Source of the DNA: a virus
Taxonomy: Duplodnaviria; Caudoviricetes
DNA length: 64,000 nt
IMG/VR virus record: IMGVR_UViG_3300010356_002264
Strand: one strand, 5' to 3'
The stretch's first letter is position 1; every line of letters begins with the position of its first letter. This document shows, piece after piece, positions 3,285 through 11,233 of the stretch. The notes below the pieces were generated by a model that saw nothing but the letters and a program-made list of their open reading frames with translations, was not told the DNA's origin and did not search any database. The translations under genes were made by a program, and so were the position numbers.

Positions 3285-3323
3285 TCTCAGCTCCGGACGT
3301 GCGGGTCCGGGTACATGGTGACT

Positions 3324-4358
3324 ATGCTCACACCCACCCGCAAGCTCGCCTCGATCCAGGTGATCGAGGGCTTCGACCCTATCCCGAACGCCGACGCCAT
3401 CCTGCGCACCCGCGTGCTCGGCTGGACCCAGGTGGTTCGCCGTGACGAGGTCGAGGCGTTCCGCGCCTCCGACAACCTCTGCGTGTTCTTCGAGATCGAC
3501 GCCCAGCTTCCAGACGGTCCCGCGTGGTCGGAGTTCATGCGCAAGCACGGCTTCGTGGTGCGTACCGTGCGGCTGCGCGGAGTGCTCGCCCAGGGGCTCG
3601 CGCTGCCCGTCTCGATCCTTGGGGAGGGCCCTGTGCCCGCCGTGGGTACCGACGTGTCGGAGCAGCTTGGGGTCACGCACTACGAGAAGGAGGTGCCGGA
3701 CGACCCACGCATCTCGGGTCCCTTCCCGCCGCTCGTCCCCAAGACCGGGGAGCTGCGCCTCCAGTCGTACCCCGCGGTGCTCGACGACCTCCGGGGACAC
3801 GCCTTCTACGTGACGACCAAGATCGACGGCGTGTCGGGGACCTTCTTCCAGCCGTTTGACGGGTCTCCACTCGTCGCGTGCCAGCGCAACTGGTCGGCCG
3901 CTCCTGGGGACCATCCCATCTGGCGGGTCGTGGACCGCTACGACCTCCGCGTCATGATCCCGCCCGGCCTGGCCGTGCAGGGGGAGATCGCCGGCCCTGG
4001 CGTACCGGGCAAGAAGAACCACCTTGGGCTCAAGGAGATGGAGTTCTTCGTCTTCCGCGTCTACGACGTGCGCAGGGACCGCTTCTTCAACTACTACGAG
4101 CTCGTCGCGTTCTGTCGCGACCGGGGCCTCCGCATGGTGCCCGTCGAGCGCGTCGTGGAGGGACGGGAGGCCGTCGAGTATCTCCACACCTTGGAGGGGT
4201 GGCTCGCCGCGGCGCGGGGCTTCTACGAGGGTACGACGCACCGCAAGGAGGGGATCGTCGTCCAGACCATCGACGTCGTTCGGTCGGAGGCTCTCGGCGG
4301 CTCTCGCCTCTCGTTCAAGGTCATCAACAACGACTTCCTCCTCAAGGAGCAGGCATGA
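3324..4358 (+). CDS. RNA ligase, DRB0094 (Rnl5-like) family
   Basis: N-terminal KLASIQ..PIPNADAI and LRGVLAQGL; nucleotidyltransferase motifs TKIDG, QGEI, KEGIV, SFKVINNDFLL. Confidence 0.9.
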   Translation: MLTPTRKLASIQVIEGFDPIPNADAILRTRVLGWTQVVRRDEVEAFRASDNLCVFFEIDAQLPDGPAWSEFMRKHGFVVRTVRLRGVLAQGLALPVSILGEGPVPAVGTDVSEQLGVTHYEKEVPDDPRISGPFPPLVPKTGELRLQSYPAVLDDLRGHAFYVTTKIDGVSGTFFQPFDGSPLVACQRNWSAAPGDHPIWRVVDRYDLRVMIPPGLAVQGEIAGPGVPGKKNHLGLKEMEFFVFRVYDVRRDRFFNYYELVAFCRDRGLRMVPVERVVEGREAVEYLHTLEGWLAAARGFYEGTTHRKEGIVVQTIDVVRSEALGGSRLSFKVINNDFLLKEQA

Positions 4359-6016: not shown

Positions 6017-9000
6017 TTATGGAGCTGACGGGTTCGCAGCTAGCGCCTGCGCCACGGCCTCCTGCGCGAGCTCGACGAAGAAGTTGGCCCCTGTGGAGTC
6101 GAAATCCGCGAGCCCTCCCGTCTCGTCCCCATCGACCATCTCGGCCGCCCGCATCTTGCGGGCGATGAGGCGCATCGCGACCTCCTGCATGGTGGCGCGA
6201 TAGGCGAGGAAGACCACTCGGATCGGAGCCACCTGACCAAGCCGCCAGGAGCGGCGCACGGACTGTCGAAGGATGGGGACCGAGTACTCGGTCCCGTACT
6301 GGATGATCGTCTTGGCGAAGAGCAGGTCGAGGCCCGTCTCGACGAGACGGCCGTTGGTGAGCAGGACGTCGAACCCGCGCTTGCACGCCTTCTCCAGCCA
6401 CTCCTCACGCTTCTCGGGGGACACGCTCGCGTCGAGCACTTCGACGCGGAATCCCTCAGCCTCTAGGGCCTCGCGGACACGCCCTCGCGCGTCCCTCTTG
6501 TGGGTCTGAGCGAAGAACACGAGGACCTGTCGTCCCGCCTGCTTCTCCTCCCGTACGATGCGCACGACCTCCGCGTCCTTGGGTTGCGGGGTGCGCGGGA
6601 AGGCGGGGGCGCTCGCCAGGAACTCCCGGCGGCCCGACTCCTCGTCGGTCCCCCAGATCTCCTCGGCCTGCTCGGGGCAGTCGGGGTAGCCAAGGCACGT
6701 CTGGAGGTACTGGCCGAGCACCTTGGGGTACTTGCGCATGACCTTCCGGACCTCCTTGGTGAGCTCAGCGATCGCCCGGAGGATCGCTGGGTCGTGGTCG
6801 ACGATCCTCACCTCCTCGTCATACGGGGGGAGGTCCTGACGAAGGTCCTTGAGCTTGACGAATATCGTGTAGGGCAACAGCAGGGGGACCATCGCGGGGT
6901 TCATCCCCGGGATCTCCCTGGTCCGTCCGCCCGATCGCTTCCCTCCTCGACGGGTCCCGTAGCGGGAGGTCGAAGACTTGAGGTCATAGCGTGTCTCGAA
7001 GAGCCCGAAGTGCTGCGAGAAGCGCGCGCAGTCCTTGAACCCGTAGCGCTTACGGAACGAGGGCTCCACCTTGTAGAGCAGGTAGAACAGGGAGCTCGCG
7101 CGCCCGCCGTACAGGGTGCCGGTCATCGCGAGGATCTTGTGCGCGCCGGCCGCGAGGTCCTGTACGGCCCGCGACTGGTCGGACTCGGCACCAGCGAACT
7201 TGTGGCAGTTGGACACGAGGATCCCCTCGACGAAGTAGCAGTGCGTGTCCTCGACCTCCAGGTCGTAGACCCACTCCTCGTCGAGATTGACGGGTTCTAC
7301 CGAGGTGACGCGGACGCCTCGGCATCCCGGATACGCATCAGGACGAGGTCGATGTTCGTCGTGACCTCCGAGTTCCAGAACCGCAGCACGGTCCACCCGA
7401 GCGCTTGGAGCATGCGACTCTTCCGTCGGTCCCGGTTGCGCTGCTTGCTCGTGTGGTGGGAGGCTCCGTCGCATTCCACCGCGATCTTCAGGGTCGGATG
7501 AATGAGGTCCACTCGCGCCATTCGCCAGGATGGATCCATCGTCGGGATGCAGCCCTCCATCTCCCAGCCCAGACGGGCGTGCAGTAGCTTCTGCTCTGGT
7601 GTGAGGTATCCGTTCCCGCCCCTGCGACCGGAGAACGGAAGACCCTTTCGGGCTTCGCTCGTCTTCGCTCGGACCTCGGGACTTCTGTTGAGCTTCGTCA
7701 TCCACTCCGACGACCGCTTCCTCGCCTCGGGCAGGCGCTGCGTTGTCCGCATGCGTTCCCGTGTCTGGGTGCGACGAGCGGGATTGCGCGCCCAGGCCGC
7801 AAGCTGGGTACACGACCGACTGCAATAGCGCCGACCCCTCTTGCGTGCGGGAACCTGTTCCGTCTTCTGACACCACCCGCACGTCACAGGGAACCGACGC
7901 GTCGGACGCTTGGGTGTAGGTCTCGTCCGGCGACGAAGCTGCGCGCCGCAGATCGGGCTGCACGTCTTCTGCTCGCGCCTCGCCCGTCGCACGAACGGGA
8001 ACTCGGACTTGCAAATAGGGCAAGCCTTGGTCGGCATCGTTGATCTCTATCAATACGTTTGTATTAGTGAGACACCGTGCCTTCCTGTAGTCAAGCTGGT
8101 CCTCCGTCCAGATCTTGTGGTCGTCGGTACAGACGATGGATCCCGTCTCATGTGAGACGCGCACCATGGGTTTGACCCTCGGCTTGCAAAGGGCACGCAC
8201 GACTCGACGCAGCACGACCTGTCCGTCTCGTGTTCTCGACCACACGAGGTCACCGACCCGTATGTCCTTGATCGGGATGCGTCCTCTCGACGTACTTACT
8301 AGGCTGGCCCCAGGGAAACACTCGTCCACGACGAGCACGTACCGGCGCGCGTATCGCTGACTGATGTACTCGGCCAGCGGCCAGCGGGTCGATCCCTTGT
8401 CGTTCAGGGTCGTCACGGTCCAGAGGGGGGACCGGCAGCCGGCGCAGTACTGGTGGTTGTCGCGGTCGAACGCTGCGGCCGTGTAGCCCGTCGTTCGTCC
8501 GCACTGCGGGCAGGAAACGAGGCTCACGATCTGGCGCACCTGCTTGGTGATCGTCCTGCGCGCGTAGAAGGGAAGCGCGTCCATCGCCTCGTGGTCCGGG
8601 ACCTCACGCATCCACGTCCTGGTGCGCAGCACGAAGGCAGGCTCCCATCGTGTTCCGAGCTTGGCGATCTCCTTGGAGATCACGAGGTAGCGAGCCGGCT
8701 TCGCCTCGGTTGACCGAAAGAATGCGTCCACGTCGGAGAGCTTCTTGCCCGCCACCGCAACGCCACGCTGGCCGGTGACCGCCTCGAACTCTCGGATCCA
8801 CTTGCGTACCAGGTGCGCGGGACAGACCACGACGGTGCGGCGTGCCCCGTACAGCTCGACGGCGACGGCCGCCATCGAGGTGTTGTGGGTCACGATGTAG
8901 TCGTCGGTGACGTACAGGGAGTTACGGCTCGATACCCTGATGCACTGACACTCCTCGTCCCTCACGTAATCGACGTTCTCGATCGAGCGGGAGGGCCCGT

Positions 9001-11233
9001 ACTTTGTTCCAGGTGAGTAGGTAGCCAGTTTTCGCGCGAGGCGGAAGGGCTGGATGTCCGGGGGAAGCGTGATGTAGAGACGGTACGCCGTCTGACCCTG
9101 CCGTCTCTCCCCGTTGTAGACGTAGGTCGTCTCCTTGGGAGCCATGGTCACGACTCCCCCGAGGGATTGGGCGAGCTCGCGGACGTGACGGGCGAGCTGG
9201 ATCGAGACGGACGTGTACTCGACGCCTGTCCCTCTCTCGTTCGCGATACCTCCGTCGGTGTCGAGTAGTCCCTGGAGGAGCGCGACACGTACCTCGACGC
9301 TGTTGTACAGGTACAGGGGAGGCACGAACTTGTGCTCGCTGCGCTTCCCGAACAGATCCAACCGACGCAGCGCCCGCGTGACGGGGTTGCGTTGCCCCCT
9401 CTCCACGACGAGAGAGTAGTCGTAGGGTGAGTTTTTTACGGGCGCGATCGATACGTTCGGAGGCAGTAAGGGTTCGATGAGTCGCAGGATCTGCTGGTCT
9501 CCCGTAGAGAGGCGAACACTGCTCGTAAGCCCTCCGTCTCCAAGGAGTACGCCGAGCAGGTATGGGTCGAGGAGGACTGGAACCTCCTCGAACTCTACGG
9601 GAGCCACCAACGGGATGAAGTGTTGTCGGTTGCCGTTCGCGTGGTGCAGGCGTTCGCGGATCTCCCTGAGCGGTAGCACGCGAGGGGCTTGGTCGCGCCA
9701 CTTGCGCAGGGGCGTGTTGACGAGCCACAGGTGGTCGTCGCAGCACTCCGTCGAGGAACCGTCGCAGAACGTGACTCGGTAGACGGGCTTGACGCCCTGC
9801 GGGAATACGCCCTCGATCGTCGCCGTTCCCCCGTCGGGATCGATGACCGAATCTCCGACGCGCAAGGCCCCCATGGTTCGCCATCCCGTCGGAGTGAGCA
9901 CCTTGGCGGTGAGCGGTTGGGCCTTCCCCGTCCCCATCTCTCCCGACAGGATGGCGGTCTTGTGGGGCTTGCGGGTCGGGCTCCCGCGCCACTGGAAGCA
10001 GACGGCGGCGGCGGCCTCCTTCTGGACCTGGAGGATCTCGGGCTGCGCGTGGCCGGGCAGAAGGCCGGGGGCGTGAAGCTGGACGAGGCGGTTCGCATAG
10101 GGTGCGAGGTTCCCGTCGAACTCCGGCGTGTGGAGCTTGCGGGTGGCCTGCGCGAGGTCGGCGCCGTACTCCTGGAACCACGCGGCCGTCTTCTCCGGAG
10201 CGTCGCTCACGCGCCAGGCATCGAAGTCACCCGTGCGGAGGTCGAGCACGGCCAGTCGGGAGGCGACGCGCTCGCGGTCGACGACCGTATCGTCTCCTCC
10301 TCCCGCCTTGTCCTCCTCGACGATCGTGTCGGTGACCTTCTCGCTCGACCCCTTGATGAGGTAGCACCCGCGAATCTCGGCCCCGTTGAGCGCCCCAGCG
10401 GCGAGGAGCATCGCCTGGTGGCCCGGCCTGGGGGGCATGAGGGGCCGCTCGATCTTGTTGCCCGCGTGTCCGACGAGTGCGTCCCACGTGGGGGTCGCGT
10501 AGGCCCCGGTGGGGGCGGGGCCCCACGCGGGAGCCAGGTCGAACGGGTTTATCCCGTGGAGTGCGAAGAAGTCTAGGGAGGTGGCGCTGACGTCGATAAC
10601 CTCCCCGTGCTTCGTGTAGGGTTCGTCCCCGATGACGGGGATGTGCTCCGTGTTGATCGGGTTGGCGTAGCTGTAGCCGGAGGAGCGACGTGCCAGCACG
10701 ACGACCTGGTCGAACTTCTCCCTCTCGGGGAGGGGGTAGTCGAACACGCGCGCGCCGTAGTAGCGCCCCTGCATGAACTCCTTGAACTTCGTGTTTCGCA
10801 GGATGGCGCGGGGCACGATGAGCACGAGGAGGCCGTTCGGCGCGAGGTGAACGGTCGCCGCCTGGAGGAACAGCACCTCCAGGCGCACCGAGTTTCCCTC
10901 TCCGTCCTGGCCCGCGTCGTACGGAGGGTTGCAGAACAGCACGTGGAAGCTCCCCTCGCTCGCGTGTAGCTGCGTGTAGCTGCCTCGCAGGCACTGTCGC
11001 ATGCGGGGACGCGCGACTTCCGCACGCTCGGCGTCGAGCTCTACTCCGTACGCCTCGAATCCCCAGGCGGCGGCGAGCGCCGAGACCGCACGTCCTTCCC
11101 CCGCGCACACGTCGAGGATACGGCCCACCTGGCCCGCGGGTGCGCGCACGGTGATGGTACGCACGATCCGCGCGGTCACGTCGTCGGACGTGGGGTAGTA
11201 GAGCGCCTTGGCGATAGCGGCTAAGCGAGCCAT
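6017..11233 (-). CDS. DNA methyltransferase-like (DUF6094-type) domain fused to an SF2/SNF2-like helicase; contains two inteins
   Basis: YYPT, DVCAGEG, NPPY; after intein removal GEMGTGK|T, DE|CH, MTGT, ETGLDL, QSVRRSWRLGQ. Confidence 0.9.
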   Translation of the reverse strand: MARLAAIAKALYYPTSDDVTARIVRTITVRAPAGQVGRILDVCAGEGRAVSALAAAWGFEAYGVELDAERAEVARPRMRQCLRGSYTQLHASEGSFHVLFCNPPYDAGQDGEGNSVRLEVLFLQAATVHLAPNGLLVLIVPRAILRNTKFKEFMQGRYYGARVFDYPLPEREKFDQVVVLARRSSGYSYANPINTEHIPVIGDEPYTKHGEVIDVSATSLDFFALHGINPFDLAPAWGPAPTGAYATPTWDALVGHAGNKIERPLMPPRPGHQAMLLAAGALNGAEIRGCYLIKGSSEKVTDTIVEEDKAGGGDDTVVDRERVASRLAVLDLRTGDFDAWRVSDAPEKTAAWFQEYGADLAQATRKLHTPEFDGNLAPYANRLVQLHAPGLLPGHAQPEILQVQKEAAAAVCFQWRGSPTRKPHKTAILSGEMGTGKAQPLTAKVLTPTGWRTMGALRVGDSVIDPDGGTATIEGVFPQGVKPVYRVTFCDGSSTECCDDHLWLVNTPLRKWRDQAPRVLPLREIRERLHHANGNRQHFIPLVAPVEFEEVPVLLDPYLLGVLLGDGGLTSSVRLSTGDQQILRLIEPLLPPNVSIAPVKNSPYDYSLVVERGQRNPVTRALRRLDLFGKRSEHKFVPPLYLYNSVEVRVALLQGLLDTDGGIANERGTGVEYTSVSIQLARHVRELAQSLGGVVTMAPKETTYVYNGERRQGQTAYRLYITLPPDIQPFRLARKLATYSPGTKYGPSRSIENVDYVRDEECQCIRVSSRNSLYVTDDYIVTHNTSMAAVAVELYGARRTVVVCPAHLVRKWIREFEAVTGQRGVAVAGKKLSDVDAFFRSTEAKPARYLVISKEIAKLGTRWEPAFVLRTRTWMREVPDHEAMDALPFYARRTITKQVRQIVSLVSCPQCGRTTGYTAAAFDRDNHQYCAGCRSPLWTVTTLNDKGSTRWPLAEYISQRYARRYVLVVDECFPGASLVSTSRGRIPIKDIRVGDLVWSRTRDGQVVLRRVVRALCKPRVKPMVRVSHETGSIVCTDDHKIWTEDQLDYRKARCLTNTNVLIEINDADQGLPYLQVRVPVRATGEARAEDVQPDLRRAASSPDETYTQASDASVPCDVRVVSEDGTGSRTQEGSALLQSVVYPACGLGAQSRSSHPDTGTHADNAAPARGEEAVVGVDDEAQQKSRGPSEDERSPKGSSVLRSQGRERIPHTRAEATARPSGLGDGGLHPDDGSILANGASGPHSSDPEDRGGMRRSLPPHEQAAQPGPTEESHAPSARVDRAAVLELGGHDEHRPRPDAYPGCRGVRVTSVEPVNLDEEWVYDLEVEDTHCYFVEGILVSNCHKFAGAESDQSRAVQDLAAGAHKILAMTGTLYGGRASSLFYLLYKVEPSFRKRYGFKDCARFSQHFGLFETRYDLKSSTSRYGTRRGGKRSGGRTREIPGMNPAMVPLLLPYTIFVKLKDLRQDLPPYDEEVRIVDHDPAILRAIAELTKEVRKVMRKYPKVLGQYLQTCLGYPDCPEQAEEIWGTDEESGRREFLASAPAFPRTPQPKDAEVVRIVREEKQAGRQVLVFFAQTHKRDARGRVREALEAEGFRVEVLDASVSPEKREEWLEKACKRGFDVLLTNGRLVETGLDLLFAKTIIQYGTEYSVPILRQSVRRSWRLGQVAPIRVVFLAYRATMQEVAMRLIARKMRAAEMVDGDETGGLADFDSTGANFFVELAQEAVAQALAANPSAP
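7208..8320 (-). mobile_element. Intein 2 (371 aa) inserted in the DExH motif; no in-frame endonuclease motifs recognisable
   Basis: DE|CFPGASLV...CTDDHKIW...WVYDLEVEDTHCYFVEGILVSN|CH. Confidence 0.9.
7297..8037 (-). CDS. Zn-finger plus Vsr/DUF559-like endonuclease, nested out of frame inside intein 2
   Basis: CxxC / CSxxC repeats; DLIHPTLKIAVECDGASHH...DRRKS..LQALGWTVLRFWNSEV; own ATG and TAG. Confidence 0.85.
   Translation of the reverse strand: MPTKACPICKSEFPFVRRARREQKTCSPICGAQLRRRTRPTPKRPTRRFPVTCGWCQKTEQVPARKRGRRYCSRSCTQLAAWARNPARRTQTRERMRTTQRLPEARKRSSEWMTKLNRSPEVRAKTSEARKGLPFSGRRGGNGYLTPEQKLLHARLGWEMEGCIPTMDPSWRMARVDLIHPTLKIAVECDGASHHTSKQRNRDRRKSRMLQALGWTVLRFWNSEVTTNIDLVLMRIRDAEASASPR
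8882..9922 (-). mobile_element. Intein 1 (347 aa): Ala-initiated, class-3-like, with LAGLIDADG endonuclease, inserted in Walker A
   Basis: GK|AQPL...DHLW...ECQCI...VTHN|T; LLGVLLGDGG and LLQGLLDTDGG. Confidence 0.9.

Follow-up and report, generated by a model that had tools for sequence, protein, structure and literature searches.

A phage helicase intein with a putative homing endonuclease overprinted in its +1 reading frame

We analysed a 64,000-nucleotide (nt) stretch of virus DNA (Caudoviricetes; IMG/VR record IMGVR_UViG_3300010356_002264; "the window" below means this whole stretch) that carries a helicase gene interrupted by two inteins. The second of these, intein 2, is very probably a composite selfish element, in which one stretch of DNA holds two genes. 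The case rests on its anatomy, the pattern of selection within it, the recurrence of the same layout elsewhere, the folds of its two products, and its sporadic distribution in the helicase family. A sequence-only reading of the window had placed an intein with intact splicing blocks at 7208-8320 in the helicase frame, and a zinc-finger plus Vsr/DUF559-like nuclease with its own ATG and TAG at 8037-7297 in the +1 frame. Both placements hold exactly, the first by Pfam and NCBIfam matches and by Hint-type ends in an AlphaFold2 model, the second by translation and a DUF559 match. The parts of the element are as follows, where pLDDT is the structure models' predicted score in the local distance difference test and L166 is a relative from a different sample.

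7208-8320, minus strand: intein 2, helicase residues 972-1342 (371 amino acids), in helicase motif II between DE and CH (from Pfam, NCBIfam, boundary comparison and AlphaFold2).
8045-8320, minus strand: N-terminal splicing region of intein 2, blocks A and B, about 92 amino acids, in the helicase frame only; beta strands with pLDDT 88-96.
7208-7330, minus strand: C-terminal splicing region of intein 2, blocks F and G, about 40 amino acids, pLDDT 85-95, with the +1 Cys after it.
7297-8037, minus strand: nuclease open reading frame (ORF), +1 frame of the helicase, ATG to TAG, 246 amino acids; putative homing endonuclease.
7945-8019, minus strand: first zinc finger, CxxC ... CxxxC, nuclease residues 7-31, present in most, not all, relatives (from translation and alignment A1).
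7810-7881, minus strand: second zinc finger, C53, C56, C72 and C76, FCS-like and invariant in the 12 relatives of alignment A1.
7327-7512, minus strand: DUF559/Vsr-like nuclease core, nuclease residues 176-237 (from Pfam, A1, Foldseek and a profile match).
8047-8052, minus strand: two nuclease-frame stops, TGA TAG, located three codons upstream of the start ATG; identical in L166.

The helicase frame holds the splicing parts. Pfam Hint_2 and Intein_splicing match host residues 970-1046 and 1321-1343, and NCBIfam intein_Cterm matches intein 2 with an E value of 1.5e-7. The N-terminal nucleophile, Cys972, comes right after VVDE; block B contains its TxxH motif (CTDDHKIWT), with H68 and T72 (intein numbering) invariant in alignment A2; blocks F and G read VYDLEVEDTHCYF...ILVSN; and the intein ends on Asn1342, followed by the +1 Cys-His (ILVSN/CH). 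When intein 2 was modelled in this frame with AlphaFold2, residues 1-92 and 331-371 formed Hint strands with a pLDDT of about 90, while residues 95-328 between them, a host-frame middle of about 235 amino acids, scored 31-40 and had no secondary structure. This agrees with the description of the middle, in the sequence-only reading, as a motif-less segment of about 250 amino acids. Its single conserved motif, RVDxVEILE, is modelled as disordered and is the shadow of an invariant motif of the nuclease, GWTVLRFWN. The last 11 or so nuclease codons overlap the structured C-terminal splicing region.

The +1 frame over the same middle encodes a well-defined protein family. The nuclease ORF matches Pfam DUF559 (PF04480) with an E value of 1.1e-13 and 51.4 bits (cutoff 20.6), and PF18741 with 46.7 bits (cutoff 38.2). 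Its second zinc finger matches the FCS zinc finger 2w0t in a profile search (E 0.004). Among the 12 relatives in A1, D177, E188, D190, H194, D203, GWTVLRFWN, a GGNG motif and the four-Cys finger are invariant, and the window ORF is intact, with all 28 family-invariant residues. The structure model has a mean pLDDT of 80; in Foldseek it places 3r3p, the catalytic domain of I-Bth0305I, at ranks 1-2 (probability 1.00, target TM score 0.67-0.68), and the next PDB fold matches are the DUF559 protein 3hrl and then Escherichia coli Vsr (1vsr). Profile searching of the nuclease reached 3hrl (E 6e-14), not 3r3p. By analogy with these families, the 246-residue protein is presumably the homing endonuclease of intein 2.

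Helicase and nuclease frames are both open across 741 nt, as had been noted for some 740 nt. Because this GC-rich (guanine- plus cytosine-rich) region abounds in spurious open frames, we applied a null model of 5000 synonymous-codon shuffles within the nuclease ORF, counting stops in the other frames. The shuffles carried on average 6.3 stops in the helicase frame and none of the 5000 left it open, against 0 stops observed; the third frame had 4 stops where the same shuffles predicted 5.2. With no open shuffle and the third frame as expected, we conclude that openness of the helicase frame over the nuclease ORF is under selection. All 15 loci tested behaved alike, with no stop in the host frame where 3.7-13.7 were expected and with the third frame as expected. 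The idea of a chance open frame in GC-rich DNA fails on these counts, and the layout also occurs at 26-45 % GC.

Comparison of the window with L166, whose intein 2 aligns over 371 codons without gaps, separates what selection does in each frame. Differences at codon positions 1/2/3, and synonymous and changing codons, were distributed as follows.

N-terminal splicing region, helicase frame: 14/7/36; 29 synonymous, 16 changing.
Overlap, nuclease frame: 37/38/97; 69 synonymous, 56 changing.
Overlap, helicase frame: 97/37/38; 11 synonymous, 116 changing.
Overlap, third (control) frame: 38/97/37; 16 synonymous, 115 changing.
C-terminal splicing region, helicase frame: 1/0/9; 8 synonymous, 1 changing.

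Wobble periodicity thus runs in the helicase frame, passes to the nuclease frame in the overlap and returns to the helicase frame, and the bias recurs in more distant pairs from four groups (39/39/102 between L010 and L012, for example). Within the overlap, purifying selection acts in the +1 frame only, as the sequence-only reading had predicted, and the host frame is merely kept open. We rejected a functional role for the linker sequence in the host frame, where the counts match those of the control frame.

The layout recurs widely. The nuclease lies at +1 in 95 of 99 relatives examined, at 26-67 % GC and from independent samples that include isolate phage genomes; among these 99 it was never found at +2, nor in frame at both junctions. 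When the nuclease was searched by tblastn against phage genomes, 36 records matched, and all of the matches listed lay inside helicase-type genes. Pseudomonas phage MR14 and two Vibrio phages carry a helicase intein at QDE/C...HN/CHH, with a complete nuclease ORF of 209-261 amino acids at +1. A further 11 full-length relatives in bacterial genomes and metagenome-assembled genomes (MAGs) have the identical layout, as do three close relatives of the window's helicase, which carry the same intein-nuclease composite. Scanning viral contigs with a profile yielded 80 loci, 77 of them nested at +1 within ORFs of 557-2556 codons (GC 26-67 %); of the other three, two were free-standing nuclease genes beside helicase genes and one was broken. 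Insertion sites are nearly all in motif II of superfamily 2 (SF2) helicases, at DE/C...N/CH, CQ, SS or SH, with a minority 2-3 residues downstream. Carriers include Vibrio and Pseudomonas phages, and contigs or bins labelled Chloroflexi, Patescibacteria, Proteobacteria, Myxococcota and Acidobacteria. Judged by these sequence comparisons, the element is a member of a large family that appears to colonise motif II of many phage and prophage SF2 helicases, always at +1.

Some relatives depart from this pattern or merit separate mention. In three GenBank phage records only the helicase coding sequence is annotated (MR14 gp44, NVP1088O_73 and VPH159E431B_0036), and the nested nuclease has none of its own. 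The nearest genomic relative of the nuclease, at 50 % identity, is a 5'-truncated remnant in a Chloroflexi MAG (L006, 3989-6300). In one contig (L172, 420-2893) the N-extein, N-intein and nuclease share a single frame; either the sequence contains a one-base error or L172 is caught in nature midway to a fractured gene or an in-frame fusion. A full in-frame intein-nuclease fusion was absent from the best 150 of 863 strong matches among 1.84 billion representatives; those 150 are 186-496 amino acids long, and the longest of them, P0230 (496 amino acids), is fused at the N-terminal junction only.

The distribution of the element within the helicase family looks like that of a mobile one. Our sample was about 120 C-extein homologues from a protein database search, mostly of about 1000 amino acids and intein-less; single-protein patterns found no C-extein relatives in viral contigs. 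A motif II intein is present in 6 of the 120, and the others are empty, with DEAH (46), DECH (22), DEVH (18) and other sequences at the site. One relative, L167, has no intein 2 and reads DEGH at motif II (protein residue ~989), yet its exteins are closest to those of the intein-2-bearing L166, with the window, also with intein 2, as outgroup. From its sequence, DEGH could be a nuclease-resistant site, or could reflect loss followed by mutation. After DEGH, L167 has QY, where the window and L166 have KF. A homologous helicase (L169) carries at the same DE/CH site a mini-intein of 195 amino acids (2373-2957), of the same lineage, from which the nuclease is deleted. The L169 mini-intein keeps LDRASILE, a remnant of the host-frame shadow of the nuclease's C-terminal motif. 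The family thus contains empty, full and degenerate sites side by side, which is what a homing cycle predicts. Similarities of nuclease and Hint domain also co-vary across 77 non-redundant loci (r 0.46, exceeded in 0 of 999 permutations), which fits inheritance of their sequences as one unit.

The two free-standing copies in viral contigs both adjoin helicase genes. In L138 (3465-5596) a nuclease of 212 amino acids lies directly upstream of a helicase gene whose frame breaks exactly at motif II, the intein site of its relatives (...IIIDE, then in a new frame ...GHHAAAP). In L114 (527-4304) the copy has 315 residues and three zinc fingers and follows an SNF2-like helicase gene closely on its downstream side; the P-loop region of that helicase gene holds a different intein. 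An origin of the composite from an invading free-standing nuclease gene would be consistent with these relatives, and such an invasion would date to the ancestor of the large intein family rather than to this gene.

Several points weigh against our interpretation. The penultimate residue of intein 2 is Ser instead of the usual His. A penultimate His is common, yet not essential in all inteins; because about a third of the relatives share the ...SN ending, it is probably, on this sequence comparison, a tolerated variant. Intein 2 is only 77-80 % identical in nucleotide sequence between the window and L166, below the 83-85 % of the exteins, and since it is the more diverged part there is no sign of recent transfer between the two. 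The correlation of nuclease and Hint similarities is confounded by genome kinship, which alone can yield it. Finally, the Shine-Dalgarno-like signal before the nuclease start is weak in the window (GAGA), and a scan of the host gene gave no promoter-like site inside it, its internal promoter and terminator hits lying nowhere above expectation.

This last point concerns how the nuclease would be made. Because the local Shine-Dalgarno-like signal is weak and a promoter-like site is absent, we infer independent initiation indirectly, from sequence context. Between the TGA TAG and the nuclease ATG lie only AGA TCA ACG, in both the window and L166; a Met stands a short way ahead of the first CxxC in every relative; and GGAGG-like motifs stand 7-12 nt upstream of the nuclease start in the Anaerolineales group and in L168. 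Translation of the nuclease thus probably starts independently at its own ATG, at 8037.

Of the other explanations, the one that survives best, although it is improbable, is that the +1 ORF is a decaying, unexpressed remnant in an intein on its way to becoming a mini-intein. A mini-intein derivative does exist in the same helicase family (L169), the ribosome-binding signal in the window is weak, and intein 2 bears no sign of recent transfer. Decay is hard to square with an intact ORF that keeps every one of the 28 family-invariant residues, or with the synonymous excess in the nuclease frame between the window and L166 (69 against 56, compared with 16 against 115 in the control frame).

We consider it very improbable that programmed +1 ribosomal frameshifting out of the helicase frame produces the nuclease, as a fusion with the N-intein and not as a free protein. 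The register is always +1, in several relatives (L011, L013, L014 and L017) the nuclease frame extends, still open, 50-80 codons upstream from the first zinc finger, and the single-frame contig L172 joins N-extein, N-intein and nuclease. Against this, the TGA TAG three codons before the ATG leaves almost no room for such a fusion in the window and L166, with only three sense codons between stops and start and no known slippery motif; the start Met is conserved and many relatives have GGAGG-like motifs before it; and each shifted ribosome would abort helicase synthesis.

An assembly or sequencing artefact, in which two compensating indels pushed an ordinary in-frame endonuclease out of frame and which the sequence-only reading had named among the things that would refute its finding, has next to no chance of being right: the window does come from a metagenome bin (260 contigs), but sequencing error is excluded because the +1 register recurs in 95 other loci from independent samples, isolate phage genomes among them, and L166 aligns without gaps, while the TGA TAG precedes the ATG, the nuclease's own TAG is conserved, and no full in-frame version appears among the best 150 of 863 representatives.

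We therefore return to the composite element, for which we propose the following mechanism. In the helicase frame it would be a class-1-type intein, its Hint domain assembled from ends of about 92 and about 40 amino acids with an unstructured linker of about 235 between them; after translation intein 2 would excise itself and restore helicase motif II as DECH. Read at +1, the DNA of the linker would encode a separate 246-residue Vsr-like nuclease (DUF559, I-Bth0305I-type) with two zinc fingers. By analogy with the I-Bth0305I family, this nuclease would cleave helicase alleles that lack the intein, close to the codons of motif II, so that the whole element is copied in. Selection preserves the sequence of the nuclease and, in the helicase frame, purges stop codons only. 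Four parts of this scheme we infer: that the nuclease is translated independently, that the intein splices, where the nuclease cuts, and that it arose from a free-standing gene.

The constant register also calls for explanation. The simplest reading is common descent of one composite that spread among SF2 helicases through the conserved DNA of motif II. The genetic code may have contributed: host-frame stops are always silently removable at +1, because each begins with a wobble T of the nuclease and NNT to NNC is always synonymous, and by the same reasoning a Met followed by a codon starting with A would have no silent fix at +2. A stronger version seems to us unlikely: that +1 is a design rule, being the only register in which all host stops are silently erasable, and that helicase translation throttles the nested nuclease start. 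Were it true, helicase translation would serve as an inbuilt limit on the dose of a potentially toxic nuclease, and one could predict, across intein families, which register and start context an overprinted endonuclease gene has. In any case +1 is not a universal rule, because a frame-3, endonuclease VII-like case has been described (bioRxiv 10.1101/2025.01.02.630785).

The host gene and its other intein are as follows.

6017-11233, minus strand: host gene, one ORF of 1738 amino acids, a DUF6094 methyltransferase fused to an SF2/SNF2-like helicase, with the two inteins inside (from the ORF list and translation).
8882-9922, minus strand: intein 1, residues 438-784, inside the P-loop GTGK/T; boundaries set by the intein-less L168 allele, GTGKTT.

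On the host ORF, Pfam finds DUF6094 at the N-terminus (E 1e-22) and Helicase_C near the C-terminus (E 1.2e-9). Intein 1 carries its endonuclease in frame, as the sequence-only reading had said (Pfam LAGLIDADG_3, residues 647-700). Its first residue is Ala instead of Cys or Ser, it ends in THN/T, and it has a Cys in block F (DEECQCIRV); these sequence features suggest a class 3 (WCT-type) intein whose LAGLIDADG domain is in frame. Intein 1 is also present in L166 and L167 (75-81 % nt identity), and absent from L168. GC content around the host gene is 60-70 %, and long spurious open frames are plentiful there; antisense ORFs across the intein (for example 6500-7501, plus strand) have no family match, and we took them as GC-driven open frames instead of genes. 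Two genes from the helicase, at 3315-4358 on the plus strand, is an RNA ligase gene (PHROG 968, E 7e-48), syntenic in L166 and L167.

The sequence-only reading suspected that similar cases had been reported, and rightly so. Gosselin, Arsenault and Gogarten (bioRxiv 10.1101/2025.01.02.630785) describe inteins whose homing endonuclease is encoded by an overlapping ORF of its own, in antisense LAGLIDADG, antisense VSR-like and same-strand frame-3 endonuclease VII-like layouts, hosted by actinophage DNA polymerase, minor capsid, terminase and thymidylate synthase genes; they propose an origin from a free-standing endonuclease gene and warn of under-annotation. Intein 2 resembles these inteins in that the endonuclease ORF lies between the splicing blocks and out of the intein frame, the intein frame is open, the host-frame middle has no recognisable structure, and automatic annotation misses the nested ORF. 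It differs in that the nuclease is on the sense strand at +1, is VSR/DUF559-like with zinc fingers and sits in motif II of an SF2 helicase; and, unlike the actinophage cases, the present layout occurs in phages and prophages of many phyla in a constant register. A 2026 preprint reports a cyanobacterial dnaX intein that encodes an out-of-frame homing endonuclease (bioRxiv 10.64898/2026.09.14.751524). Because these preprints describe out-of-frame and antisense endonuclease inteins, the general arrangement is already known and only the layout itself is new: a sense-strand, +1, zinc-finger/DUF559 nuclease in SF2 helicase motif II is not among the described layouts that we found in the literature.

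Intein 2 is also reminiscent of fractured genes, in which a split intein has a free-standing Vsr-like or GIY-YIG endonuclease gene between its halves (Dassa et al., 2009; PMC2677866). Shared features are the Vsr-like superfamily, the same-strand order of N-intein, nuclease and C-intein, the occurrence mainly in phages, and a nuclease 3' end that overlaps the C-intein coding region. Fractured genes comprise two host genes joined by trans-splicing, with a stop and a restart after the endonuclease gene; in contrast, the window's helicase ORF is unbroken over 1738 codons, so that one precursor and cis-splicing are expected.

For the nuclease itself the closest counterpart is I-Bth0305I of the EDxHD homing endonuclease family (PDB 3r3p; Taylor et al., 2011; PMC3239194). 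The two share the Vsr-like fold (no structure matches the nuclease core better than I-Bth0305I), an N-terminal DNA-binding region ahead of a C-terminal nuclease, and residence in self-splicing elements of phage replication and repair genes. The invariant D177, E188, D190, H194 and D203 of the window nuclease are candidates for the conserved catalytic Glu/Asp/His/Asp residues of the EDxHD family. Unlike I-Bth0305I, which belongs to a group I intron and has NUMOD/HTH-like (helix-turn-helix-like) DNA-binding motifs, the window nuclease has two CxxC...CxxxC zinc fingers. A further parallel is the methylase insertion of phage ShiLan (PMC11855218), reported as an in-frame insertion in a phage gene with a hidden endonuclease in another frame; its nuclease is HNH and, unlike intein 2, the insertion could not be identified as an intein.

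Our analysis adds a large and well-supported family, of about 95 loci, to the recently described inteins that have their mobility enzyme encoded by a separate gene overlapping them, and places it between the mini-intein, the fractured gene and the canonical in-frame intein. Two frames of the same strand are coding over about 740 nt, with selection on sequence in one and on openness alone in the other, which makes it a test case for overlapping-gene detectors. Gene callers miss such nuclease ORFs, and inteins of this kind are likely to be misread as decaying. There may also be some interest for protein engineering in a Hint domain that would tolerate a disordered insert of 235 amino acids, and in a putative zinc-finger/Vsr-type nuclease targeting motif II. 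For the evolution of inteins, the family offers a living example of the intermediate in "splicing first, endonuclease later" models, in which endonuclease genes enter inteins (Dassa et al., 2009; PMC2677866).

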